Assembly: GCA_963736115.1 (NCBI GenBank)
Contig: CAVTNR010000010.1
Coordinates: 64,674 to 128,673, forward strand
Source: an uncultured bacterium
GTDB taxonomy: Bacteria; Zhuqueibacterota; QNDG01; DTFT01
Length of the DNA stretch: 64,000 nucleotides
Reading direction: 5' to 3'
Shown in pieces: positions 2,978 through 64,000 of this stretch. The notes below the pieces were generated by a model that worked only from the letters and a program-made list of their open reading frames with translations, had not been told where the DNA came from and ran no database searches. The stretch's first letter is position 1. Every line of letters begins with the position of its first letter. Made by a program: the position numbers and the translations under genes.

Positions 2978-4384
2978 TCATTCCAGCACCCCTTTCAGCA
3001 CGCCCGCCGCTTTCCGAAGTCCGTAACGGGCCATCTGGTATTCGTACAGGGATGAAATGGAGTTGAGCCGGGACTGCGTGAGCGCGAGGCGGGCGCCCAT
3101 CACGTCGAGCTGGGTGCTGGCGCCCTCCTCGTACATGAGATTCGCCAGACGCATGGCCTCCTCCGCCAGGACCGCGGATTCACCCGCGGCCTGCACCTTC
3201 TGTTTCGCCTCCAGGTACTTGTTATAGGCCATTTCGGTCTCCGCCGTGACGCCGTCGTCCGCCTGCTTCCAGTTGTCCTTCGCGATCTTCACATCCATGC
3301 GCGCCTTGTGCCAGCCGTACCAGTTGGCGCCGCTGTTGAACAGGGGAATCTGCAGGCTGACCGCGGACGTGAATCCCTTGCTGAAATCGTCCTGCGTGAA
3401 CTTATAATCCGTCCGCATGGCCATGAAGGAGTAATCGGTCTGAAAGAACACCTTGGGCAGAAAGGCGCTCCGCGCGGCCGTGGCCGCTCCGGCGGCGATG
3501 GATTTCTGTCCGCTCAGGGCCTTGTACTCCGGCCGGTTCTTGCGCGCGATCATTCTCAGGTCCGTGAGCGACAGGCTGTCCATGGCGTCGCCCGCATACG
3601 CGAGCCGGCCTTCGAGCGCGATCGGCGCGGATTCCGGCAGTCCCATGACCATGCGCAGTCCGGTCAGGGCCGAGAGATAGGCGTTCCCCGCGGAGATCAC
3701 CTGGGGTTTGAGGTTGGCCACGTCCACCTCGGCCCGCATCCGGTCGAATCCCGACGCGTTTCCAGCGTCGTATTTCTTCCGGACCAGGTCGAGATTCGCC
3801 TGCGATTGCTCCAGCGCCTGTTCCTGCACGGCCTCCACTTCGCGGGCCAGCAGGCAGGCGTAGAACGCGTTGACCGTGCCGTACACGATCGCCTGCTTCC
3901 GGGCTTCCAGCCCGCCCTCGGCCGCGCGCTTCGCTCCGTTCGCGATGCGCACGCCGGCCCATCCCGCGCCACCCAGAAAGACGGGCTGGGTCAGCGCCGC
4001 CCCGTATAAAAAGGTGTTGTCCACGCCGAAGGAGAGCTTGAGGTAATCGGGCATGTCTTCCACGCCGGGCATCACATAGCTGCCGTCCGGGAGCCGCATG
4101 GCGGCCTTGATGAAGTTCGGGATGAGGCTCTCCTGAATCTCCCAGGAATGCTGAAAATTCAGGCTCCCCGTGACCCTGGGCAGGAGCGCCGCAACGGATT
4201 CGGCGACGCCTGACTTCGCCTTGGAGAGTTCCTTCTCCGCGATGCGGATTTCCGGATTCTGTTTCAACGCCGTTTCAACGCTCCGGCCGAGGTCCAGCCG
4301 GAGCGTATCCTGGCTGCGCACCGTTCCGGCCGCGGCGATCCAGATCACGATCACAGCCGTTCCCATGCGTTTCAAACCGCTCAT
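2978..4384 (-). CDS. TolC-family outer-membrane efflux protein
   Basis: ORF 2978..4435. The ATG at 4384 follows GGAGGAGAAG. Signal peptide present, then two TolC-like repeats (LDLGRSVETALKQNPEIRIAEKEL..; LDVMGARLALTQSRLNSISSLYEYQMA). Confidence 0.8.
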   Translation of the reverse strand: MSGLKRMGTAVIVIWIAAAGTVRSQDTLRLDLGRSVETALKQNPEIRIAEKELSKAKSGVAESVAALLPRVTGSLNFQHSWEIQESLIPNFIKAAMRLPDGSYVMPGVEDMPDYLKLSFGVDNTFLYGAALTQPVFLGGAGWAGVRIANGAKRAAEGGLEARKQAIVYGTVNAFYACLLAREVEAVQEQALEQSQANLDLVRKKYDAGNASGFDRMRAEVDVANLKPQVISAGNAYLSALTGLRMVMGLPESAPIALEGRLAYAGDAMDSLSLTDLRMIARKNRPEYKALSGQKSIAAGAATAARSAFLPKVFFQTDYSFMAMRTDYKFTQDDFSKGFTSAVSLQIPLFNSGANWYGWHKARMDVKIAKDNWKQADDGVTAETEMAYNKYLEAKQKVQAAGESAVLAEEAMRLANLMYEEGASTQLDVMGARLALTQSRLNSISSLYEYQMARYGLRKAAGVLKGVLE

Positions 4385-4478
4385 CTTCTCCTCCGTTTGA
4401 CCATTGTGCATCCGATGCATCCTGTTGAAGTCCATTCACCCCGGATCCGCGAGCCGGAAATGCCGAATCCCGCGTTCA

Positions 4479-5129
4479 TCAATTTTCCAGGGACCTTTCA
4501 ACGCCGGAGCCGGTTCCCCGCGCTTCCCCGGCCTTGGCCGCGGACCGTCCGTCATCCGGGCCGGCCAGAATGCCGTAAAAGAAAAAATTCATGATTTCCA
4601 GCAGTAGTTCCCGCCGCGACGCATAATGGGCCAGCAGTTTTTCATCCACGACCATCTCCGTCATCCGGTCGATGAAATAGAGAATGAACTCGGGACGGAT
4701 TTCCGGACGGATGCGGCCTCCGGCCTGGGCGTCGGCGAAGTCGGACATCCAGGCGTCGCGGTTTTTCCGCATCATGTCCTCCAGCATCGGAACGATTTCC
4801 GGATCCGGGCTCCGATACAGATCCTGAATAAAATCGTTCCCGATCGTCTCGGACTGCTCCAGCTTGAGACGGATGATGGAACGGATTTTCGCGGGAAAAG
4901 GATCCTCTGAATTCATGATTGCGTGATGCCGGGCATTCCCGTCTTCGAACAGTCGATGCAGGATGGCCCGAATCAGATCGTTCTTGTCCTTGAAATGTTT
5001 GTAGAACGTCATCTTGCTGATGTCTGCTTCGCGGCATATCTCTTCAATCGAAATCCGGCGCACCCCGTGTTTAAAGAACAGGGTCTGGGCTGTAGAAAAT
5101 ATCTTATCGCGTTTTGGATCAGTTTCCAT
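4479..5129 (-). CDS. TetR/AcrR-family transcriptional regulator, first gene of the efflux operon
   Basis: N-terminal HTH: IFSTAQTLFFKHGVRRISIEEICREADISKMTFYKHFKDKNDL. Co-directional with the TolC/MFP/RND genes. Confidence 0.85.
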   Translation of the reverse strand: METDPKRDKIFSTAQTLFFKHGVRRISIEEICREADISKMTFYKHFKDKNDLIRAILHRLFEDGNARHHAIMNSEDPFPAKIRSIIRLKLEQSETIGNDFIQDLYRSPDPEIVPMLEDMMRKNRDAWMSDFADAQAGGRIRPEIRPEFILYFIDRMTEMVVDEKLLAHYASRRELLLEIMNFFFYGILAGPDDGRSAAKAGEARGTGSGVERSLEN

Positions 5130-5532
5130 GTTTGTCCTGTTTTACGAAAATCGTCTTATAATACTGAATACGTCCAATTATTGATATTTTGTACGGAAGC
5201 TAATATAAAAAGTTGCATGTAATTTTCCAAATCCTCTTTTTGAGATCCTATGCCGATATTGCAATAATAACAAAAGGATAGGTGGATATTGCGAATTATA
5301 CTAAAATATTCGTTTTTGAAATGGAATATCAGGTCCATTTCCAAATATTTCGAAATCTTCATATATACTTTAAGCCGGTGTTTTAAAGCAGGATGGGATG
5401 TGGGGCAAGGCAAGCAGATTCAATAATCAGAATAAGATTCTAATGAATGTTTACCTGATATGGGATATTCCTGTCATCAAGGCACAACACTTGCATAAAT
5501 CATAAGTATTAAAGAAAATAAGGACACTTCCC
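5130..5532. promoter_or_regulatory. AT-rich divergent promoter/operator region between tetR (-) and the chemoreceptor gene (+)
   Basis: About 400 bp that is markedly AT-rich in a GC-rich context. Perfect palindrome TATTGCAATA at 5257..5266, with a related GATATTGCGAATTATA at 5285..5300. Confidence 0.5.
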
Positions 5533-7875
5533 ATGAATCGCATTCCGACATTGCGCAATAGTACGCTGGCGGGATTCATCCTTCTGCTTTTGCAAACCGC
5601 GATATGCGTCGGTCTCGTCATTTTGAACATCGCGAAAGGAACGACCCTTTCCTGGATTCCAGCCGCGGTGATCGGGTTTCTCGGAGCCGCGGCAGCGGCG
5701 CTGATCTGGCAATACCGCATCCAACCCTCGGAATCCCTTATTCAGGCGGGCCGGACACTTCACAGCAATGACCTGAGTCGGCTCACGCAGGCCATCACCG
5801 ATCTGGGCCAGGGCAATTTTCATGTACGCATCGATTCCACGGCAAACAAGCTCCCGGCCGGGACGGATCCGAGATTCGAGGAATTCAAGTCCATACTCAA
5901 CGACCTCACGGCCGTCATCCACAATGCGGCCGGCGAGTTCAACGAACTGACGGATGTTCCCTGTCTCAGACTCTGTTATGTGGGGTCCGACTCCTTTCTC
6001 GAGGGGCGCCTCTGCGGCGAGGCCATGGCCGCGGCCATCGGCGGCCGGGGTAAAATCTCCATTTCCACCGCCCGGCTCAGCACGCCGAACCTCCTCCTGC
6101 GGAGAAAGGGCTTCATCAGCCTGCTGAAGGAAAAATATCCGGAGATTGAAATCGTCGATATTCATGAGAACAAACGTGAAGAACAAACCACCCGGGAACA
6201 GGCGCTTCGCGTCCTGAACGAATTCAGGGATCTGGCGGGATTCTACATGACCGAAGCGGAGTCTCCGGCCCGCGTGGCCGGCGTCCTGGAGGAATCGGGT
6301 CTTGCGGGAAAGGTGAAAATCGTCGGCCATGACCTTCTTCAGTCCACCATGGAATTCCTGGACAAGGGCGTGATCACCTCCACGATCAGCCAGGACCCGT
6401 ATGCCCAGGGCCACGACCCCGTCATCCACCTGTTCAACCACATCGTGGCCGGGTGGCAGCCCCCCACGCCCCGCATGCTCACGCGCATGGAGGTGGTGGA
6501 CCGGTCCAACTACCATCTGCACTGGAACCCGCAGACGCGCCAGGTTCTGTCCGGAACGGATCCGACGCGGCTGGCGCGGCCCGTGGACCGGCGGCCGGAC
6601 AGGCCCCTGCGCCTCGTGTTTGTGGGCCGTGAAGATTCCGAGTTCTGGGTCCCGCTCAAAATGGGGGCGCTGGCGGCCGCGGAGGAACTGAAACCCTACG
6701 GCGTGACCGTGGAATGGCGTCTGCCCAAGAGTGAATCCGTCAAAGCCAAAACCTCGCACGGGAACCTCGAGGGGACCCGCGAATTCCTGATGCTCGAGGC
6801 CCTCATCCGCGAGCGGGTCGACGGCATCGTCACCTATCTGCCCGAAGCCCGGCTGGTCAAGATTGTCAACCGGGCCGTGGAATCGGGAATACCCGTGATC
6901 ACGACCAACGGCGAACCCTTCAACCTCCGGAGTCTGCTCTACACCGTGAATCACCAGGCGCTGAAACTGCTCGACCTGAGCACGCAGCTTTCCCGGAGCG
7001 CATTTGACGTCAGCGAGTCCACGTCCCGGATCGCGGCGTCCATCGAGCGGATCACGTCCGGCATCGTGTCGCAGGACGATCAGCTGCAGGGAACGGAACA
7101 GGAGCTCGGCGTGGTGTCCGACCACATCGAACGCATCCACTGGGAAGCGGACCGGAGCGCCCGGAGCGCATCGGACACCTGGAGCCAGGTGGAGACCAGC
7201 TCGGGGGCCCTCAAGGAATCCATGGAAAGCTTCAAGTCCATCGTCACGGACGCGGAGGAGGCCTGGAAAACCGTTCAGGGGCTGGCCGAAACGTCCGAGC
7301 GGATCGACTCCGTGATGCAGATGATCGACGAAATCGCTTCGCGCGTCAATGTTCTGGCCTTGAACGCCCAGATCGAGGCGACGCGCGCCGGCGAGGCCGG
7401 CCGCGGATTCATGGTGGTGTCCAACGAGATCCGCAGCCTCTCGCGGAATACGACGGCCGCCACTTCGGAGGTTTCGGAGCTGGTGGAACAGATCAAGGAC
7501 GGCATTGCCGGCGTGCAGGATGCCGTCTCCCAGGAAATGAACAAGATGCGGGAGTCGTCCGAGGTGACGGACCGGGCCGAAAGCACCATGGGCGTCATCC
7601 TGACCTCGCTCGGAGAAAACAAACAGCGGCTTCTGCGTATCGTGGAGGCCGTCGACCAGGCGCGGAAGTCTTCGGGTCAGGCGCGCGAGAACATGGAACA
7701 CATGTCGAAACTGAGCGCCCGGAACACGGAATCGCTGAAGGAGATCAACGCGACCACTGAGGCGATGACCCGCCGGTTTCAGGACGTCGCGGACATGGCC
7801 TCGCTTCTGGAAAAAATCGCGGAAGGCGAGAAAGGGCTACTGGCGAAGTTCTCGCTGAAGCCGGAGGATAACTGA
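5533..7875 (+). CDS. Methyl-accepting chemotaxis protein with a cytoplasmic PBP1 (LacI/RbsB-like) sugar-binding module
   Basis: Two N-terminal TM helices separated by about 5 residues. HAMP-like segment, then PBP1-like blocks (VGSDSFLEGRLCGEAMAAAIGGRGKISI..; KVKIVGHDLLQSTMEFLDKGVITSTISQDPYAQG; LRLVFVGREDSEFWVPLKMGALAAAEEL..VDGIVTY..ESGIPVITTNGE). MCP signalling hairpin follows (NVLALNAQIEATRAGEAGRGFMVVSNEIRSLS). Confidence 0.85.
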   Translation: MNRIPTLRNSTLAGFILLLLQTAICVGLVILNIAKGTTLSWIPAAVIGFLGAAAAALIWQYRIQPSESLIQAGRTLHSNDLSRLTQAITDLGQGNFHVRIDSTANKLPAGTDPRFEEFKSILNDLTAVIHNAAGEFNELTDVPCLRLCYVGSDSFLEGRLCGEAMAAAIGGRGKISISTARLSTPNLLLRRKGFISLLKEKYPEIEIVDIHENKREEQTTREQALRVLNEFRDLAGFYMTEAESPARVAGVLEESGLAGKVKIVGHDLLQSTMEFLDKGVITSTISQDPYAQGHDPVIHLFNHIVAGWQPPTPRMLTRMEVVDRSNYHLHWNPQTRQVLSGTDPTRLARPVDRRPDRPLRLVFVGREDSEFWVPLKMGALAAAEELKPYGVTVEWRLPKSESVKAKTSHGNLEGTREFLMLEALIRERVDGIVTYLPEARLVKIVNRAVESGIPVITTNGEPFNLRSLLYTVNHQALKLLDLSTQLSRSAFDVSESTSRIAASIERITSGIVSQDDQLQGTEQELGVVSDHIERIHWEADRSARSASDTWSQVETSSGALKESMESFKSIVTDAEEAWKTVQGLAETSERIDSVMQMIDEIASRVNVLALNAQIEATRAGEAGRGFMVVSNEIRSLSRNTTAATSEVSELVEQIKDGIAGVQDAVSQEMNKMRESSEVTDRAESTMGVILTSLGENKQRLLRIVEAVDQARKSSGQARENMEHMSKLSARNTESLKEINATTEAMTRRFQDVADMASLLEKIAEGEKGLLAKFSLKPEDN

Positions 7876-7925: not shown

Positions 7926-7966
7926 AGACCCGAAAGGTCTGTGAGACCTTTCAGGTCTGATTTTTT
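7926..7966 (+). terminator. Rho-independent terminator after the chemoreceptor gene (two tandem AGACC-N5-GGTCT hairpins plus T6)
   Basis: AGACCcgaaaGGTCT at 7926..7940 and AGACCtttcaGGTCT at 7944..7958, followed by GATTTTTT. Confidence 0.5.
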
Positions 7967-7984
7967 ACGGGGACGACAGAAACC

Positions 7985-8019
7985 AAAACCTGAAAAGTCG
8001 ATCAGACCTTTCAGGTTTT
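7985..8019 (-). terminator. Terminator hairpin for the convergent GH3 gene, possibly bidirectional
   Basis: AAAACCTGAAAAG...CTTTCAGGTTTT gives a stem of about 11 bp with one bulge, flanked by A/T runs. It lies 38 nt downstream of the stop at 8057. Confidence 0.5.
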
Positions 8020-8056
8020 GCGTGTCAATCCGGAGCGGGGATCAACGTCCGGAATT

Positions 8057-14379: not shown

Positions 14380-17300
14380 TCACTTGATCACCGCGAATTT
14401 GCCGATTTTATTTCCCAGTTTGCCCGCATCCACGTGGTACACATAGACGCCGAAGGCGATGGACAGCTGGTCCCGGGTCAGCATGTCCCAGATTTCCGTG
14501 CCGTCGCTCAGACTGGGCGTGTCATGTTCGAGGGTGGCCACCAGCTGACCGCTGGAGCTGTAGATCCGGATCGTGCACACGGGCGGCAGGTGGGTGAAAT
14601 GGATCTGACGTTCCCCACGCCCGTCCGCGTACGGATTGGTCGGTTCCCAGCCGTTCGCCACGATGTAGGGATTCGGCACAACCCGGATGTCGTCCAGAGA
14701 GGCCTTCGCGGCCGGCAGGTCCAGCGCCTCTCCGTGCATCGTGAATTCGAACACGTCCCGCGACAGGAAGGGTTTGAACATGCGGATGCGGAGCGTGTCG
14801 CCCATGCCGGGCTTTCTGCGGGTGTCGTCGTCCTGGCTGCGCTTCATGGAGACGGACAGCGCGGGCCGGAGTGTGTCGGCCTCGGAGGGATTCAGGATGA
14901 GGATTTCGTCCTGCTTGGTCTTCGAGCGGGAGAACTCCCCGTCACCGCCGTCGGCGTCCAGGAAGCCGAAGGGCAATCGTTCTCCCGAAACGGCGTCCAG
15001 AACCAGAAAATTGACATCCTTGGCCGCCAGCGCCCGTCCTTTCCGGAAGCAGGGAACCGCGGTGTCGAGCACCGCGGCGCTGTCGCCGAAAATGATGTCG
15101 ATGTCGCGGGAGATCGGGCTTTCCGCCTCCAGCCGGTAGAAGTACGGCGCCACGCTCGGAACGAATATTTCCGCGTGGTTGTATTTCGTCCGGGCGGTGT
15201 CGATCGCGGATTCGGCCTCATTCCGCAAGGACAGCTCGAATCCATGGATCATGGGGAGTTTGACCTCCAGACCGGCCGGTTTCAGGCGTCCAACTAGAGT
15301 GTCGGGAGAGGCGGGATTCGTCACATCGACGAGACTGAGGTTCCGGGTGTACACGGTGTCCGGCGCGTTCGCGACGACCGTCATGGTGTCCTCGAACGAG
15401 ACGCGGTAAATATGACCGTCCCGGACCGCGGCCGGATCGATCAGTTCCAGCGTCACATCGCCCGAGGTGGTGCCGCCGGGCAGGAGATGCGGAATATCGG
15501 CGCGGCTGGGCACAAAGCCCGCGGACGGGGCCTCCGGACGGACCACGACCACATTGGAGCCTTTTTCCATGACCTCGCCGTTCTGACCGATGGAGATGAA
15601 TTTGGTGCACTCGGTGGGCGGAATCCTCTTTTCCGCGTCCCCGTGGTCATAGGCGGTGACGGCGTAGTAATACTGGTACCCGTTCACGGCCGTGGTGTCG
15701 GTCCAGGAATGCCGGAGTCCGGTGTCATTTCCCAGATCAAACAGAATCCCCTTCACATCGACCGTGGCGTACCCGCTGATTCCATTTTTCAGATCAAACT
15801 GGGCAACGGGTTTGCGGTAGGCGTAGGACCCCTGGCCGTCCGTGATCTGGGCCATGTCTCTCCAGGCCGCGTCCGTGGAGCGGTAGATCCGGTATCCTTC
15901 GAAATCCTTTCCCGTGATGGGGTCTTCCGAATCCTCCGCCCAATCGTCCCAGAACAGCGTGACGCGGTTGTTTCCACGCACCGCCTGAAGGGTCGGAATG
16001 TTCGGCGCGCGGGAGAAGTTGTAATTCTCGGCGTACGCCGTGTTCATCCAATGCTTGTTGACGGTCAGTTCGTCCAATGTAACCGCGAGCACGAGACCCA
16101 TGGAAAACCTCTCGACTTCGCCCGGGGCCAGCGGGAAATAGCCGGATCCCCAGAAGAGCTCGACATTGACGTTTTCGAGTCTTCCGTCCAGTTTTCCCGG
16201 CCGGCATTTTTCCCATGTGGCCTCATCGTCATCGTGGGCATACGTCGCCCAATCGTAGAGGTTGAAGCTGGTCAGACCCAGCATGTCCGTTTCGTGGATG
16301 TCGGTCTTGTCGAAATGGGGTTCTCCGGCGGTCGGCCTTCCGTCCTTTTCGCCCGGGTCGCTCGTGAAGGGCGCGCCGTCCTGGCCGAGGTCGTCCAGCG
16401 TGACGTCCCAGTCGCCGTCGTTGTCGATGCTGTCGTCCCGCTGCTCGTCGATGAGCGGGTTGTCCCGGCCTTCGCCCGTGAAGTAATCGATGTATTTGAG
16501 GCCGGTGTACAGGTAACGATGGCTCACGTTCGGCGGGGCTCCGAACCGGGTGCCGTTGTTTTCATCGATCAGTCCGTTCAGGTTGTCGTCTATAAGGTTG
16601 TTCTCGACTTCCTCGCGCTTATATCCCGGATAGATCTTGATGACCTGGTCCTCGTAATGGATCAGAAGCGTGTCATCCGGCATGGTCACCTGGGTGCGCC
16701 CGAAGGTCCTGTAGTCGATGAGGATGATCGGGTCGCCGGCCAACAGCACCTTCGCCCGGAACATCGCCTCGGTGATGACGGGGCCGCTGCCGTTCACGCC
16801 GTCGCCGTCATTATCGATGCCGTCCACCGGGTTGCCCGGGCTTTCGAGGAACGCGCCCCCGATGTAACCCACGGGCGAATAGCCCCCGCCGCCGATATTG
16901 TCATTGTCCCACATGTACGCCATGTCCTCCGCCAGGTCATAGGCGCCGCAATCATCGCCCGAATCGCCCGCGGTCGACGTATCGCCGATATTGTTGCCGA
17001 TCTTGTACCCGAAGGCCATTTTATCGTGATGATAGGTGCCGATGTTCTCAATGTCAAACAGCAGAAACAGGACATTCTGCACCAGCAGGTTGGACCATTG
17101 AAAGCTCCGGACCCACATGCGCATGCCCAGACCCTTCCGGCTGAGGTCGCGGCTGTCCGGGAAGAAGTTGAATTCCTTCTTGTTATAATCATCGGACACG
17201 AAAAAAGCCTCTTCGTCCGCGTTCAACTGGCCCTTGCCGAAATAGCCGTTCCACTTGCCTCCCCAGCCCGGATCCACCGGGTCGTCCGACCTGTCAGGCC

Positions 17301-17790
17301 AGTAAGCCGGCCAGGAGGCCGGCCATTTGCTCATGGCGAGAGAGTCGCCGGGGTGTTTGGCGAAGCCGGGCAGGGGCAGGAATGTCCACCATTCGCCCGT
17401 GACGGGATCGGCGTCTCCCCTGGAATAATTGCCGGAACTCGTCGGCAGGGAAGGATCCCCGTTGCTCTGTACCGTGGAATTGATGTGCTTCATTTCGCCG
17501 TTGGCGTCGATCACCTCGGAAACCACGAATTCGTCGCCGTCGATGAGCCACAAATGGCCCGAATTGATCGGCCATTCGCCCGCGATGGCGTCGGACGACC
17601 CGCTCGGATGGGACGCGTTGGTTCCGTAGGTGCCGTCGTTGAAGAAGGTGGTGCGGATCTGATTCCCCGCATGCAAGCCCATTTTCATGTACTGAAAATC
17701 GCCGTGCAAACCCTCCATCGCCGATTGGGCCGACAGCATGGGTGCCAGACCCATGAACAGAATGCCAGCCAGTGCGGATTTAAGTTTCAT
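14380..17790 (-). CDS. 1136-aa secreted protein of unknown function with acidic Ca-binding-type loops, an FN3-like module and a variant T9SS-like C-terminal domain
   Basis: ORF 14380..17886. The ATG at 17790 (AAGGAG upstream) gives MKLKSALAGILFMGLAPMLSAQ. Acidic loops DGIDNDGDGVNG, IDDNLNGLIDENNG, DDSIDNDGDWDVTLDDLGQDG. FN3-like GYRIYRS...YQYYYAVTAYD. Tail VVPNPY...IRIYSSSGQLVATL...GVYVYHVDA...KFAVIK. Confidence 0.8.
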   Translation of the reverse strand: MKLKSALAGILFMGLAPMLSAQSAMEGLHGDFQYMKMGLHAGNQIRTTFFNDGTYGTNASHPSGSSDAIAGEWPINSGHLWLIDGDEFVVSEVIDANGEMKHINSTVQSNGDPSLPTSSGNYSRGDADPVTGEWWTFLPLPGFAKHPGDSLAMSKWPASWPAYWPDRSDDPVDPGWGGKWNGYFGKGQLNADEEAFFVSDDYNKKEFNFFPDSRDLSRKGLGMRMWVRSFQWSNLLVQNVLFLLFDIENIGTYHHDKMAFGYKIGNNIGDTSTAGDSGDDCGAYDLAEDMAYMWDNDNIGGGGYSPVGYIGGAFLESPGNPVDGIDNDGDGVNGSGPVITEAMFRAKVLLAGDPIILIDYRTFGRTQVTMPDDTLLIHYEDQVIKIYPGYKREEVENNLIDDNLNGLIDENNGTRFGAPPNVSHRYLYTGLKYIDYFTGEGRDNPLIDEQRDDSIDNDGDWDVTLDDLGQDGAPFTSDPGEKDGRPTAGEPHFDKTDIHETDMLGLTSFNLYDWATYAHDDDEATWEKCRPGKLDGRLENVNVELFWGSGYFPLAPGEVERFSMGLVLAVTLDELTVNKHWMNTAYAENYNFSRAPNIPTLQAVRGNNRVTLFWDDWAEDSEDPITGKDFEGYRIYRSTDAAWRDMAQITDGQGSYAYRKPVAQFDLKNGISGYATVDVKGILFDLGNDTGLRHSWTDTTAVNGYQYYYAVTAYDHGDAEKRIPPTECTKFISIGQNGEVMEKGSNVVVVRPEAPSAGFVPSRADIPHLLPGGTTSGDVTLELIDPAAVRDGHIYRVSFEDTMTVVANAPDTVYTRNLSLVDVTNPASPDTLVGRLKPAGLEVKLPMIHGFELSLRNEAESAIDTARTKYNHAEIFVPSVAPYFYRLEAESPISRDIDIIFGDSAAVLDTAVPCFRKGRALAAKDVNFLVLDAVSGERLPFGFLDADGGDGEFSRSKTKQDEILILNPSEADTLRPALSVSMKRSQDDDTRRKPGMGDTLRIRMFKPFLSRDVFEFTMHGEALDLPAAKASLDDIRVVPNPYIVANGWEPTNPYADGRGERQIHFTHLPPVCTIRIYSSSGQLVATLEHDTPSLSDGTEIWDMLTRDQLSIAFGVYVYHVDAGKLGNKIGKFAVIK

Positions 17791-17809
17791 GGTCTGCTCC
17801 TTGCCCTTG

Positions 17810-20764
17810 TTAAAATCCGACCGACAAACCGGCCTGAACCTGGCGCGGCGCCGAATACCAGCTCGGCTGTTTGGCCCATTCCTCAACCGTGCCGATCCGC
17901 GAGGCGACGTATCCCTGCTTCTCCGGATCGATGGTGGAGGTGACGTCCGCCTTTTCCGTGTCGCCGTATACGCTCAGCGCGTCGCGGAAATCGAGGAGAT
18001 TGTACACGTTGACGAACGCGTTCATCCGGAGCTTTCCGACCGTGATCCCGCGGTTCACGGTCAGGTCGATGTTCCGCCGCATGGGCGTGTATTCGCTGTT
18101 CTGCAGGAGGCCTTTGGAGGCGGCGCTGCCGAACACTTCCCCGGAGGGGAACGAGGGGGTATACGGCGTGCCGCTGGTCAACTGCCCGATCGCCGAGAAC
18201 AGCCACTGCCCGAGCTGATAACGGACCAGCGCGTTCAGGGTATGCGGCTGGTCGAAGCCCATCGGGATCAGCGCGAGCCGCTTCTGCTCGTGGTTGGCGT
18301 AGGCGGTGTAGGCGTCGGTCGGGCTGGTGTAGGTGCCCTCCGCCTTCTGGTAGGTGTAATCCACCCTCACTGACCAATTCCTGGACATCCGCTTGTCAAG
18401 CTTCACCGTGACACCACGGACATTTTCATAGTCCAGATTCATGAACATCACGTACTGGACGGCGGGGTTGACCGTCGGCTGGAGCGGTGTCTGGCCGACC
18501 CAGTCGCGCACGTCGCGGTAGAACAGCGATATGTCCACGCCCAGATCGTTCGACAGCTGCTGCTGCAGGCCGATCTCATACTGAACCGTCCGCTGGGGTT
18601 TGAGTTCCGCGTTCGACAGGGTGAAGTTGCCGCCGCCCATGCCCAGCTTGAAGTCGGGGCTGCTGTACAGATACTGGAAATCGGGGATCTGGAAGAAATG
18701 ACCGTAGGAAAAGTGGATCACGCCGCGGTCGGTGATGGGGAAAGACAATCCCAGACGCGGGCTGACCGCGTAGCTGGCCTCGGCCTTCTTCTCCATGAGC
18801 GCCCTGCGCTCGGCCACGGAGAGCGAATCCGTCGTGCCCGGCCGGAAAGTGTGCTCCGGTTTCATGGGCGTGTAAATGCTCGGGTCCGTCGGATCGGCCG
18901 GGACCACGCCTTTGGAGTCGAAATAATCGAACCGGAGGCCGAGGTTGACGATCAGATCCTTGAGCTCGATCTTGTCCTGGGCATAGGCCGAAAACTCGAA
19001 GGGATTCCGGGTGTAGAGCAGCCGCTGCACGCTCGAAACGCCCGGAACGTCCGGTTCGAACGGGATGACGGCCTCGCTCGTCCCCGGAACGGTTTTGGGC
19101 GTGATCGTGTAGGAATCGAGCGTCAACTCATGAAACCGGGCCTCGACGCCCGACTTGATCTGGTGGACCCGGTTGATCTGGCTGGTCAGGTCCAATTTTC
19201 CGACCCAGTAAGCGGTGCTCCGCTCGTAATGGTTCATCAGATTGCCGCTTTTATTGAAACTGTAGCTGGTCGGCGCCGAATTGGAATCGGGGCTGACGTA
19301 CCCGCTCGGGCCGGCTGGATCAGGGATAAAATCGTAAGTCCGCCTGTCGGACCGGATGGCCTGTAACCGGGCCTGGCCTTCAGCCGTGTTCGGATCGAAT
19401 TCGAAACCCGTCAAACCGGCATCGGCATCGGGATACACGCGAACGAAGTAATTCGGCTTCGTGGTGGGATCCTCAAAGAGGAATTGCCTGTATTCGTTGT
19501 AGAAATGGTTGACCCGCAGTTCATAAAAAGTTTTAGCCGAGAGCATGTGGTTCAGCTCCAGGATGTGCGTCAAGCCGGTACCCTTCTGCTGGGGGATGCC
19601 GTCCGGCGCATAGGTGTACGCCTTGTTGTAAATCCGGTCATTGTTCCAGCGGTTCCCGAACACGTTGTATTTGACGGTGATGTTCCGGCTGAGCCGGTAG
19701 ACCAGTTTCCCCTGGAGGCTGACCCGCTCGTAGGGATTCATGGAGACGAGCGAACTGTCTCCGGCTGTGCCGGCCGGCGTGAACCACTTCCGGCCGTAGA
19801 GATATCCCTCGTTCGAAAAGAAGCGGCCGTTGACGAAAAACGACAGTTTGTCCCCGGCGAAGGGAACCGGACCATTCAGGTTGGCTTCGAAATTATAAAC
19901 GGGATTGAAACGCTTCAGCGGATTTTCCGTCACGCCGTCCGCGCGCAGGACACCCCGCGCGTCGGAAACGACGTTGACCCGCTTCAACAGGGAGAATTGT
20001 TCGCCGCCGCCGAGATAGTCCCCCACGTATCCGCTCACGTCCCCCGTCAGCTTGTTCCCGCCCTCCTTGGTGATGACCTTCACGATGCCGGACATGGCCT
20101 GCCCGTACTCGGCGTTGAACGTGCCGCTGACCACCTGCAGCTCCTGGATAGCCGAATTTTCGACCGTGACGCCGCTCGATCCGTTGAACACGTCCGTGGT
20201 GGATACGCCGTCCACCCAGTACGCGATCTCGCTCGAACGGCCGCCGCGGATATGCACCTGTCCGCCGGTTCTCACGACACCGGCCTGCAGCGCCAGAATG
20301 TCCTCCATGCTCTGCACGGGCAGGTCCCGGATCTCATCGGCACCCACGCTGGACAGCGACGACGTCATGTCTTTCCGGACCAGGGGCCGTTCGGCCGTTA
20401 CCGTGACCGCCTCTCCGGATTCAATCACCGCAGGCGATAGTTCAGCGTCGCAGGCCGCGGTCATGTCGATGGACACCCGGAGATCCTCGGTCACCCGGGT
20501 CTGATACCCCATCATGCTGATCCGGACGCTGACCATGCCGGGCGGCACGTTGAGGATCATGTAATAGCCGTCCATGTCGGTCACCGCGCCGGCGGAAGTG
20601 CCGACGACCAGCACGTTGGCTCCGATCAACGGCTGCCGGGTGGAGCGGTCGACCACGGTGCCCGCGATCTTGCCGGTGGTGCCCGCGGCCAGACGGCCCG
20701 CGACCGAGATCAGGCAGACCCCGAGGATCGCCGCAACAATCCGGAGCTGGCGGTTACGCTTCAT
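17810..20764 (-). CDS. TonB-dependent outer-membrane transporter with N-terminal carboxypeptidase-regulatory-like domain (SusC-like architecture)
   Basis: ORF 17810..20797. The ATG at 20764 follows GAGGAG. Sequence has GKIAGTVVDRSTRQPLIGANVLVVGTSAGAVTDMDGYYMILNVPPG, a plug region (SSVGADEIRDLPVQSMEDILALQAGV) and the barrel terminus ...QAGLSVGF. Confidence 0.9.
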   Translation of the reverse strand: MKRNRQLRIVAAILGVCLISVAGRLAAGTTGKIAGTVVDRSTRQPLIGANVLVVGTSAGAVTDMDGYYMILNVPPGMVSVRISMMGYQTRVTEDLRVSIDMTAACDAELSPAVIESGEAVTVTAERPLVRKDMTSSLSSVGADEIRDLPVQSMEDILALQAGVVRTGGQVHIRGGRSSEIAYWVDGVSTTDVFNGSSGVTVENSAIQELQVVSGTFNAEYGQAMSGIVKVITKEGGNKLTGDVSGYVGDYLGGGEQFSLLKRVNVVSDARGVLRADGVTENPLKRFNPVYNFEANLNGPVPFAGDKLSFFVNGRFFSNEGYLYGRKWFTPAGTAGDSSLVSMNPYERVSLQGKLVYRLSRNITVKYNVFGNRWNNDRIYNKAYTYAPDGIPQQKGTGLTHILELNHMLSAKTFYELRVNHFYNEYRQFLFEDPTTKPNYFVRVYPDADAGLTGFEFDPNTAEGQARLQAIRSDRRTYDFIPDPAGPSGYVSPDSNSAPTSYSFNKSGNLMNHYERSTAYWVGKLDLTSQINRVHQIKSGVEARFHELTLDSYTITPKTVPGTSEAVIPFEPDVPGVSSVQRLLYTRNPFEFSAYAQDKIELKDLIVNLGLRFDYFDSKGVVPADPTDPSIYTPMKPEHTFRPGTTDSLSVAERRALMEKKAEASYAVSPRLGLSFPITDRGVIHFSYGHFFQIPDFQYLYSSPDFKLGMGGGNFTLSNAELKPQRTVQYEIGLQQQLSNDLGVDISLFYRDVRDWVGQTPLQPTVNPAVQYVMFMNLDYENVRGVTVKLDKRMSRNWSVRVDYTYQKAEGTYTSPTDAYTAYANHEQKRLALIPMGFDQPHTLNALVRYQLGQWLFSAIGQLTSGTPYTPSFPSGEVFGSAASKGLLQNSEYTPMRRNIDLTVNRGITVGKLRMNAFVNVYNLLDFRDALSVYGDTEKADVTSTIDPEKQGYVASRIGTVEEWAKQPSWYSAPRQVQAGLSVGF

Positions 20765-61972: not shown

Positions 61973-63136
61973 ATGGAATTCGTCGAAATCGAGGACGTTT
62001 CCAAGCACTACCGGAACATCCGCGCCGTGGACCGCGTCACCTTGTCGATCCGCAAGGGCGAATTCTATTCCCTTCTCGGGCCGAGCGGATGCGGCAAAAC
62101 GACTTTGCTCCGGATGCTGGCCGGATTCGAGCGGCCCGACCGCGGCCGCATCCGGCTCGACGGCCGGGACATCACGGATCTTCCCCCGCACAAGCGCACC
62201 GTCAACACGATCTTCCAGAATTACGCCCTGTTCCCCCACCTCACCGTGAGGCAGAACATCGCCTTCGGCCTCCAGGTGCAGAAGAAAATGCCCCGGAAAC
62301 AGATCGACGAAGCCGTCGACCGGATGCTGGGCCTGGTTCAGCTCGAATCCCAGGCGGACAAGAAACCCGCGCTCCTGAGCGGCGGGCAGAAACAGCGCGT
62401 GGCCGTGGGCCGCGCCCTGATCCTGAAGCCCCAGGTGCTCCTGCTGGACGAGCCGCTGGCGGCATTGGACCTGAAACTCCGCCAGAAAATGCTCATGGAA
62501 CTGGACCTCATCCACGACCAGGTCGGCATCACTTTCATCTACGTGACGCATGACCAGGGCGAGGCCATGAGCCTGAGCGACCGGATCGCGGTGATGAACA
62601 ACGGACGGATCGAGCAGGTGGGGAAACCCGCCGAGATCTACGAGGCGCCCCGGAGCAGTTTCGTCGCCGCCTTCATCGGCGACACCAACTTTTTTGAAGG
62701 CCAGGTGCTGGAGCTCGTGGGCGATGAGTACTCCCGGCTGAACATCGCGGGATTCGCCGACCTGGTGTGTTTCAACGACAAGAAAATTTCCGCGGGCAAT
62801 CCGGTGTTCCTGAGCATACGGCCCGAAAAATTCCACATCGGCCGGAACCGGCCGGAGTTGAGCCCCAAGCACAACCTCGTCCGGGGCCGCGTGGAGGACA
62901 TCATCTATCTCGGCGGGACGACCAAGTACTGGGTTCAGGCGGAGGGGCACAAGATTTCCATCACCCGCCAGCACGCACGCTTCTTTCTGGACGAGGAGCC
63001 GATCCGCTGGAACGACGACGTCTGGGTCTGGTGGCACGCGGATGACGGGTTCATGCTGGAACGGTACAGCGAGGCCGACGAGAGCCTGATCAGCCTCTCA
63101 CCCGAGACGGCGGAGCCGTCACAGGCGGCGCCTTGA
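61973..63136 (+). CDS. potA: Spermidine/putrescine-type ABC transporter ATP-binding protein
   Basis: Walker A GPSGCGKTT, signature LSGGQKQRVAVGRAL, Walker B LLLDEPLAALD. PotA-like FQNYALFPHLTVRQNIAFGL and a C-terminal TOBE-like region. Confidence 0.85.
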   Translation: MEFVEIEDVSKHYRNIRAVDRVTLSIRKGEFYSLLGPSGCGKTTLLRMLAGFERPDRGRIRLDGRDITDLPPHKRTVNTIFQNYALFPHLTVRQNIAFGLQVQKKMPRKQIDEAVDRMLGLVQLESQADKKPALLSGGQKQRVAVGRALILKPQVLLLDEPLAALDLKLRQKMLMELDLIHDQVGITFIYVTHDQGEAMSLSDRIAVMNNGRIEQVGKPAEIYEAPRSSFVAAFIGDTNFFEGQVLELVGDEYSRLNIAGFADLVCFNDKKISAGNPVFLSIRPEKFHIGRNRPELSPKHNLVRGRVEDIIYLGGTTKYWVQAEGHKISITRQHARFFLDEEPIRWNDDVWVWWHADDGFMLERYSEADESLISLSPETAEPSQAAP

Positions 63137-64000
63137 CCGGCGGCCGGAAAAGCGGCGAATGGGCGGTCACCGCCCCGACCTTCACGTGGCTGATTCTGCT
63201 GTTCGTGATCCCGACCTTCCTGGTCTTCATGATCATGTTCAAGCCGTCCGATCCGTACGGGGGCATCGGGTCCGGCTGGACCCTCCGGACGCTGTTCAGC
63301 CTCGGCAACCCGAATTATCCGGCCATTCTCTGGCGCACCGCGTGGCTCAGCGGCCTGACCACGGCGCTCTGCCTGGCCCTGGCCGTGCCGACCGGCTACT
63401 GCATGGCGCGAGCCGACCGCCGGTTCCGGAACACGCTGATGCTCCTGGTGATCATTCCGTTCATGACGAGCTTTCTCGTCCGCATCTTCGCCTGGAAGGT
63501 GCTCCTGCATCCCGAGGGCCTGATCAAGCGCGGCCTGGTCCTGCTGGGACTGGCGCAAGCCGACACCTCCCTGCTGTACACACCCGGGGCCGTGCTCCTG
63601 GTGATGGTGTACACGTCCCTGCCGTTCGCCATTCTGCCGGTCTTCGCGGCCGCCGAAAAGTTCGACTTCCACCTGATCGAGGCGGCCCGCGACCTCGGCG
63701 CCAGTCCGACCGGGGCCTTCTTCCGCGTTTTCATTCCGGGCATCAGCCGCGCGCTCTTCACCTCCATCCTGGTCGTCCTGATCCCGTGCCTGGGGTCTTA
63801 CGTCATCCCGGACGTCGTCGGCGGTCCCAACAGCGAAATGCTCGGCAATAAAATCGCCCAGCGGACCTTTTCGGACCGGAACCTGCCGCACGCGAGCGGA
63901 TTGTCGGCGATCCTGACCCTGGCCGTCCTGATTCCCATGATCTGGGTGGTGATGTCTCAGCGGAAGCGCGAAACGGGCGGCGGCGGATCCATTTTCAAGG
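63133..64000 (+). CDS. potB: ABC transporter permease (PotB-like); runs off the right edge
   Basis: My translation from TTG 63133 (TTGA overlap with the potA stop) is TGGRKSGEWAVTAPTFTWLILLFVIPTFLVFMIMF...LMLLVIIPFMTSFLVRIFAWK...IEAARDLGASPTGAFFRVFIPG (EAA loop). No stop before 64000. The ORF track instead shows a wrong-frame ORF at 63159..63851. Confidence 0.8.
   Translation, partial: MTGGRKSGEWAVTAPTFTWLILLFVIPTFLVFMIMFKPSDPYGGIGSGWTLRTLFSLGNPNYPAILWRTAWLSGLTTALCLALAVPTGYCMARADRRFRNTLMLLVIIPFMTSFLVRIFAWKVLLHPEGLIKRGLVLLGLAQADTSLLYTPGAVLLVMVYTSLPFAILPVFAAAEKFDFHLIEAARDLGASPTGAFFRVFIPGISRALFTSILVVLIPCLGSYVIPDVVGGPNSEMLGNKIAQRTFSDRNLPHASGLSAILTLAVLIPMIWVVMSQRKRETGGGGSIFK

Follow-up and report, generated by a model that had tools for sequence, protein, structure and literature searches.

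We analysed a 64,000-nucleotide stretch of an uncultured bacterial genome (GTDB lineage Bacteria; Zhuqueibacterota; QNDG01; DTFT01; GenBank assembly GCA_963736115.1, contig CAVTNR010000010.1, forward-strand positions 64,674 to 128,673), hereafter the window; all positions are counted from its first letter. At 5533..7875 on the plus strand, stop codon included, lies a gene for a 780-aa receptor of the methyl-accepting chemotaxis protein (MCP) type, as an initial annotation made from the letters of the window had proposed, and its sensor is a permuted periplasmic binding protein (PBP) module that the topology places in the cytoplasm. Pfam recognises two domains in the protein, Peripla_BP_4 (PF13407; 129.4 bits, cut-off 35.1), which matches in two stretches, and MCPsignal (PF00015; 104.6 bits, cut-off 34.6). 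The order of parts is two transmembrane (TM) helices, a divergent HAMP, a type-I binding domain with its segments swapped, and the signalling hairpin. NCBIfam had no family-specific model for it, yielding solely partial matches to MCP and sugar solute-binding-protein equivalogs, far below cut-off.

The binding module takes up about 325 aa (residues 140-462), between the HAMP and the hairpin; the initial annotation had this placement right, while its length of ~370 aa was too generous. Block A (residues 140-326; 5950..6510, +), delimited by domain and sequence matches and modelled by AlphaFold2 (AF2) with pLDDT >90, corresponds to canonical PBP residues from ~93 to the end; it spans strand beta5 of the N-lobe, the first hinge segment, the C-lobe in full, the helix and strand that lead back to the N-lobe, and the final strand of the C-lobe. 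A linker of 32 residues (327-358; 6511..6606, +) then connects the old C-terminus to the old N-terminus, making the fourth lobe crossover, and its end (RPVDRRPDRPLR) is similar to the mature N-terminus of canonical relatives. Block B (residues 359-462; 6607..6918, +), defined by sequence matches and AF2, corresponds to canonical residues ~1-92 and runs through N-lobe beta1-alpha1-beta2-alpha2-beta3-alpha3-beta4, with T-N-G-E-P as its last letters.

The swapped order was seen with several canonical proteins. In a phmmer search of PDB chains, query residues 140-313 matched residues 120-292 of GanP (6gq0) and query residues 361-460 matched its residues 33-120; the glucose-binding protein of T. 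maritima (2h3h/2qvc) gave the same swapped pattern. A closer comparison came from our representative library with P0217, a canonical-order secreted relative of 356 aa with a lipoprotein-like signal: by BLASTP, query 136-326 matched its residues 158-347 (37% identity, E 9e-39) and query 340-473 matched its residues 49-173 (34% identity, E 4e-16). The two query blocks meet on the P0217 sequence between TFNSE and TDTPNNRLFFVGAD, and on both 6gq0 and P0217 they are complementary, with neither overlap nor gap.

To place the cut we used the sequence and contact list of E. coli RbsB together with the AF2 secondary structure. The chain passes through N-lobe beta5 (146-151), the C-lobe (154-286), an N-lobe helix (289-306) and strand (314-316), and a C-lobe strand (320-323), and after the linker through N-lobe beta1-beta4 (359-458). 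By this mapping the cut falls in the N-lobe connection between beta4 and beta5, at the lip of the binding cleft; in canonical proteins this connection bears ligand contacts, D89/R90 in RbsB and N91 in GGBP. The last HAMP helix (113-139) enters six residues ahead of R146, and the output helix begins at L465, five residues past N459.

The module begins EFNELTDVPC and ends TTNGEP; in the receptor family the consensus is EFNxxTDxPCxRLCYVGAD at the start and TFNSEPxSLRGL at the end, so that the junction motif FNSE is kept at both module ends. Such a footprint is expected where a tandem duplication has been trimmed on its two outer sides, and the permutation would most likely have been one event, in which a binding-protein domain was duplicated in tandem and both outer ends were then lost. 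A plausible precursor form is P0263, a tandem PBP-PBP protein colinear with query residues 140-525. In a tree of the re-ordered blocks, ten canonical-order proteins fall on one side of a branch with 100/99 support and 72 permuted proteins on the other, a topology compatible with a single origin of the permutation.

Modelled alone from a 21-sequence alignment, the sensor reached pLDDT 87 and pTM 0.85, with both blocks mostly >90 and only the variable loop 397-414 weak; the full-length AF2 model agrees with it. Foldseek against PDB returned as top matches the canonical monosaccharide binders 2h3h, 2qvc, 5dkv, 3c6q, 6gq0, AraP and XylFII, each over 180-220 columns, whereas TpMglB-2 (6bgc) aligned over 370 columns and was the only PDB entry covering nearly the whole module. 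Foldseek being a sequential aligner, short alignments with canonical proteins and a long one with a permutant are what it should give for a permuted fold. These results support one complete type-I PBP fold with permuted order, of the CUT2 (Peripla_BP_4, RbsB-like) kind. The swapped order noted in the initial annotation thus stands, as does its proposal of one complementing fold in place of two unrelated domains; its LacI/RbsB-type label is narrowed to RbsB/CUT2. We regard it as very improbable that the blocks are independent truncated remnants serving only as a spacer or dimerisation element. Such remnants would fit the Foldseek alignments, which span about two thirds of the canonical targets, and the single fold is a modelled one; against them stand the exact complementarity of the blocks on 6gq0 and P0217, the pTM of 0.85 with pLDDT >90 in both, and the conservation of the module, which outranks that of the signalling arms and includes a pocket near-invariant across 233 proteins.

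TpMglB-2 (Tp0684) of Treponema pallidum is a circularly permuted glucose-binding lipoprotein designated "Type Ic / Cluster Bc", in which three N-lobe strands are shifted to the C-terminal end, the cut lying before beta4 (PMC4990184; PDB 6bgc). The receptor module resembles it in being a type-I sugar-binding fold whose first N-lobe strands have moved C-terminally, requiring a fourth lobe crossover. The two differ in setting, TpMglB-2 being a free, lipid-tethered periplasmic transporter protein, and in the cut: four strands are moved here (after beta4) against three, and the "Type Ic" N-lobe order 5-4-6-1-2-3 is not matched. We found no sequence similarity between them, phmmer not listing TpMglB-2 at E<=1 and Foldseek aligning it with 13% identity; the two permutations are therefore analogous and independent.

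Hydropathy places TM helix 1 at about residues 12-33 (5566..5631, +; AF2 helix 4-35) and TM helix 2 at about 41-61 (5653..5715, +; AF2 helix 41-92). The loop between them is seven residues (34-40, AKGTTLS), slightly longer than the ~5 given initially, and leaves no periplasmic sensor, as had been claimed. No further hydrophobic segment was detected by hydropathy from residue 61 to 780, and most of 98 homologues likewise have two TM helices joined by a short loop. The divergent HAMP (residues 62-139; 5716..5949, +) comprises the first amphipathic segment (AS1), with P65 and a G94-N95 motif, a long connector (93-112), and the second (AS2, helix 113-139), which terminates in the relic motif EFN. 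Its Pfam match is weak in this receptor (PF00672, 11.7 bits against a cut-off of 25, E=0.35); Pfam does match HAMP in several homologues, including P0067, P0069 and P0072, and AF2 models the region as helix-loop-helix (41-92, of which 62-92 lies past TM2, and 113-139) with a 20-residue connector.

HAMP and kinase-control domains of MCPs are necessarily cytoplasmic. Because no membrane crossing separates the PBP module from either, the module must be cytoplasmic too, in agreement with the initial annotation. PBP-type domains are normally extracytoplasmic, and canonical P0217 carries a signal peptide, which might suggest a conventional extracellular sugar sensor with the module in the periplasm. 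We consider this next to impossible: the only two hydrophobic segments are both N-terminal and seven residues apart, the module sits between the HAMP and the signalling domain without a membrane crossing, and one family member, P0226, lacks any N-terminal membrane region.

The kinase-control hairpin (residues 463-780; 6919..7872, +) is defined by the Pfam MCPsignal match, by similarity to Tm1143 (2ch7), which residues 485-762 match, and by AF2, which models helices at 465-618 and 620-770, about 22 heptads per arm. The hairpin tip (residues 598-628, DEIASRVNVLALNAQIEATRAGEAGRGF; 7324..7416, +) is conserved and is the expected CheA/CheW-binding region; I601, L608, N611, A612, E615, A616 and F626 are invariant columns in the 98 homologues.

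For the pocket, the module was un-permuted in silico and aligned with the RbsB sequence. RbsB residues F15/F16, R141, D215, Q235 and D89 correspond to F371/W372, R190, D267, Q287 and N459. Among 233 permuted proteins F371 is kept in 203, W372 in 187, R190 in 225, D267 in 226, Q287 in 203 and N459 in 203; 11 canonical relatives likewise keep these positions, and the module as a whole is better conserved than the signalling arms. Because RbsB-type sugar-contact positions are conserved, our best guess for the ligand is an intracellular neutral monosaccharide or close analogue, which retains the initial proposal of an intracellular sugar. Genomic context was of little help: the P0217 contig is only 2.4 kb long and uninformative, and a CUT2 ABC transporter lies 4 kb from the gene of P0181, a family member described below, a weak ligand hint from a single contig.

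The permuted family is further marked by C144, C148, C161, H266, H299 and W308, which are replaced by N, F, A, F, R and V/Q/T, respectively, in canonical relatives. The three cysteines and two histidines (codons 5962-5964, 5974-5976, 6013-6015, 6328-6330 and 6427-6429, +) are conserved in 149-215 of the 233 permuted proteins.

The host metagenome-assembled genome (MAG; 3.34 Mb, 31 contigs, 87% complete) has three MCP genes, two of them with the permuted-PBP architecture. The second such gene (C14:128000-130330) encodes a 41%-identical paralogue and has two receiver-domain genes directly upstream (C14:126725-127908); the receptor, which the initial annotation took for the only sugar-sensor-like protein near the glycan-degradation array, is thus not the only such sensor in the genome. 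No CheW, CheR, CheA core, FlhA or T2SSE (PilB/PilT-type) ATPase was found in this 87%-complete MAG, and its che genes are most likely in the unassembled 13%. All three congeners (G001-G003) have both paralogues and CheW-domain genes. Pieces of a chemosensory cluster in G003 and G001 read CheW-CheR(TPR)-CheW-HAMP-MCP-Hpt and CheA-REC-CheB-GAF-kinase, the last protein carrying four receivers and an Hpt domain; the CheA-REC and CheB genes come from G001. We take this cluster to resemble Wsp/Frz-type systems, and by analogy the kinase for the receptor is probably that of a Wsp/Frz-like, non-flagellar pathway. FlhA was not found in any of the three congeners, one of them 96% complete, nor in 10 of 11 relatives; because the genus has shown neither a flagellar nor a pilus ATPase gene, and congeners have yielded no chemosensory cluster but the Wsp/Frz-like one, the receptor may serve an output different from swimming.

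Taken together, it is fairly probable that the protein is a membrane-anchored MCP-type receptor that senses through a permuted, cytoplasmic, sugar-type PBP standing in line with the signalling rod. The new termini lie side by side, which would let the module fit in line between HAMP AS2 and the helix that opens the signalling hairpin. A small sugar-like molecule, once inside the cell, would occupy the conserved cleft (F371/W372, R190, D267, Q287, N459); closure of the cleft, or a change in how the two N-lobes of a receptor dimer pack together, as in LacI, could shift the output helix, and this shift would alter the activity of a CheA-type kinase at the hairpin tip.

Several points weigh against this account. 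Both new termini are on the N-lobe, so simple clamshell closure alone moves neither helix relative to the other, and the coupling mechanism is our inference only. The receptor has no strict methylation motif ([ASTG][ASTG]xx[EQ][EQ]xx[ASTG][ASTG]) within residues 463-780, where it carries looser EQ/EE pairs (TEQEL, DAEEA); 68 of 121 homologues have at least one strict motif. With the che core missing from the MAG (87% complete), the downstream pathway is drawn from congeners, and the MCP encoded in their cluster may differ from the receptor in heptad class. Free sugars are usually phosphorylated fast in the cytoplasm, and the ligand could therefore be a sugar phosphate or another metabolite. 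The family-specific three Cys and two His hint at a possible extra or other input, such as metal or redox.

The last two points lead to an alternative in which the permuted fold is real, yet senses a sugar phosphate, another metabolite, or metal or redox state through the Cys/His cluster. Its case rests on C144, C148, C161, H266 and H299, which are replaced in the canonical secreted relatives, and on the habit of cytoplasmic LacI-family cores of binding sugar phosphates, nucleobases or proteins. Since the permuted family conserves the sugar-contact positions no less than its secreted canonical relatives do, and the closest solved relatives all bind neutral monosaccharides, we consider such an input unlikely, though one to keep in mind.

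The canonical CUT2 binders (2h3h/2qvc, GanP 6gq0 of Geobacillus, E. coli RbsB and P0217) share with the receptor module the fold, the Peripla_BP_4 assignment, 28-37% identity in each block, and the pocket's aromatic pair, Arg, Asp, Gln and Asn. They have native order and are secreted, free-standing partners of ABC transporters or periplasmic receptor domains; the receptor module, in contrast, is permuted, cytoplasmic by its topology, fused in line to a signalling helix, and endowed with the extra conserved Cys/His. Among chemoreceptors the nearest likeness is to the Aer2 type, with HAMP-PAS-HAMP-signalling architecture and a cytoplasmic sensor: in both, the periplasmic loop is short or absent and the sensor, placed between HAMP and the kinase-control module, reads an intracellular cue. 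Where the Aer2 type uses PAS/haem to read gas or redox state, the receptor has a permuted PBP, with a sugar as its presumed ligand. LacI/GalR proteins and Bacteroides BT1754 (2x7x) likewise use a type-I PBP core as the sugar input of a signalling protein. The LacI core is cytoplasmic with its output element on the N-subdomain; unlike LacI/GalR, the receptor has no helix-turn-helix match in Pfam or NCBIfam, and its PBP core is permuted. BT1754, for its part, has a periplasmic sensor that keeps the native order. The receptor family can be seen as a further form both of MCPs with a cytoplasmic sensor and of type-I binding proteins with permuted order, each a kind already known.

Chemoreceptors rarely sense sugars directly; sugar taxis classically proceeds by way of free periplasmic binding proteins or the phosphotransferase system. 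A binding protein permuted and spliced into a cytoplasmic signalling path would offer a separate way of tying sugar sensing to transport or metabolism. The design mirrors engineered biosensors with reporters inserted near the hinge of a binding protein, and would show a site, found by nature, at which a clamshell domain can be joined to a helical output.

The architecture is widespread. A word-indexed search gave at least 158 matches; among the 120 listed, lengths were 662-868 aa, at least 88% of the sensor region was covered, and all had both PF00015 and PF13407. An exhaustive profile search found 574 representatives at E<=1e-30, and most of the best 150 of these are 700-880 aa long, with the complete module located at about residue 130. 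A scan of species genomes found 306 loci under at least seven phylum-level labels, including KSB1, Acidobacteriota, Ignavibacteriota, Chloroflexota/Anaerolineae, Spirochaetota, Fibrobacteres and Kryptoniota; carriers in Ignavibacteriota include the cultivated Rosettibacter primus and a Melioribacter-labelled MAG. Three variants were found. P0148 combines a MASE11 membrane domain with the module and MCP; P0181 is a hybrid histidine kinase with the order 2TM-HAMP-module-HisKA-HATPase-REC-AraC; and P0249, also an MCP, bears at its C-terminal end a PBP from the same clade, in native order.

We clustered the neighbouring open reading frames (ORFs) of 79 homologous loci. Tandem paralogues were frequent, assorted response-regulator and kinase genes also recurred, and CheW adjoins receptor homologues in Anaerolineae loci. 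No sugar-catabolic or transporter gene recurs beside homologues in these loci, and context therefore gives no ligand clue. The initial annotation had allowed that the architecture might prove common and already characterised. Common it is, largely in uncultured bacteria; it is apparently uncharacterised, the literature search having brought up no publication describing it and only TpMglB-2 and reviews on free binding proteins, with subscription journals outside its coverage. Since the cassette is present in hundreds of species-level genomes from little-studied phyla and attached to two or more kinds of output, the biochemical study of one member would annotate a large family.

A bolder reading, which we offer as doubtful, makes the 2TM-HAMP-permuted-PBP unit an unrecognised portable cytoplasmic cassette of single origin, arisen by duplication and truncation, through which chemoreceptors and hybrid kinases of many phyla would read how much of an imported sugar is inside the cell. 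The Cys/His residues would add a second, redox or metal input, and in non-flagellated lineages such as the present one a Wsp/Frz-like relay would serve carbohydrate-use behaviour in place of swimming.

Upstream of the receptor gene, on the opposite strand and divergent from it, are tetR and an RND efflux operon (OEP, HlyD_D23, ACR_tran); downstream is a convergent GH3 gene. A consensus scan gave a candidate sigma-70-like promoter at 5240..5268 (+), TTGAGA-17-AATAAT with a TG extension, and a pattern scan gave a terminator-like hairpin followed by a T-run directly 3' of the stop codon (7944..7958, +), with a second long hairpin, from the same kind of scan, at 7984-8020. With its own promoter-like and terminator-like sites, the receptor gene is predicted to be monocistronic. 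The divergent intergenic region between tetR and the receptor gene (5130-5532) is ~400 bp long and AT-rich, has promoter-like sites on both strands, and contains the palindrome TATTGCAATA. GC content is 0.52 in the 4001-6000 interval against ~0.61 elsewhere.

From 8 kb to 60 kb the window is occupied by a ~50-kb glycan-degradation array on the minus strand. Its glycosidases, or glycoside hydrolases (GH), belong to GH3 (four genes), GH2 (three genes), GH29, GH31, GH39, GH42, GH97, GH127 and a GH51-like arabinofuranosidase; other array genes encode a pectate lyase, a TonB-dependent receptor, proteins sorted by the type IX secretion system, and esterases. No regulator was seen among the array ORFs scanned, small ORFs not all being covered. 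The receptor gene abuts this array, and the initial annotation had linked the two. One might accordingly picture the receptor as a dedicated regulator: it would signal a breakdown sugar, once imported, to a chemosensory-like phosphorelay, and the relay would control array expression. Such a relay would suit the congener cluster, which ends in a multi-REC/Hpt hybrid kinase in a genus without FlhA, and P0181 offers a permuted cassette that drives an AraC-type hybrid two-component protein. We think this decidedly unlikely. The receptor gene is monocistronic by the above scans, lies on the opposite strand and converges with the first GH3 gene; no GH or other glycan gene is recurrent next to homologues in the 79 loci; and the C14 paralogue stands in an unrelated context. 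A functional tie between receptor and array beyond proximity is not supported.

Two further features of the array region were noted. A 1168-aa ORF (14380-17886, -), flanked by the pectate lyase region and the gene for the TonB-dependent receptor, has no Pfam match at E<=1e-5. At the far end of the array (61973-63999, +) are genes for a MalK-like ABC ATPase (ABC_tran and TOBE_2) and a BPD_transp_1 permease.

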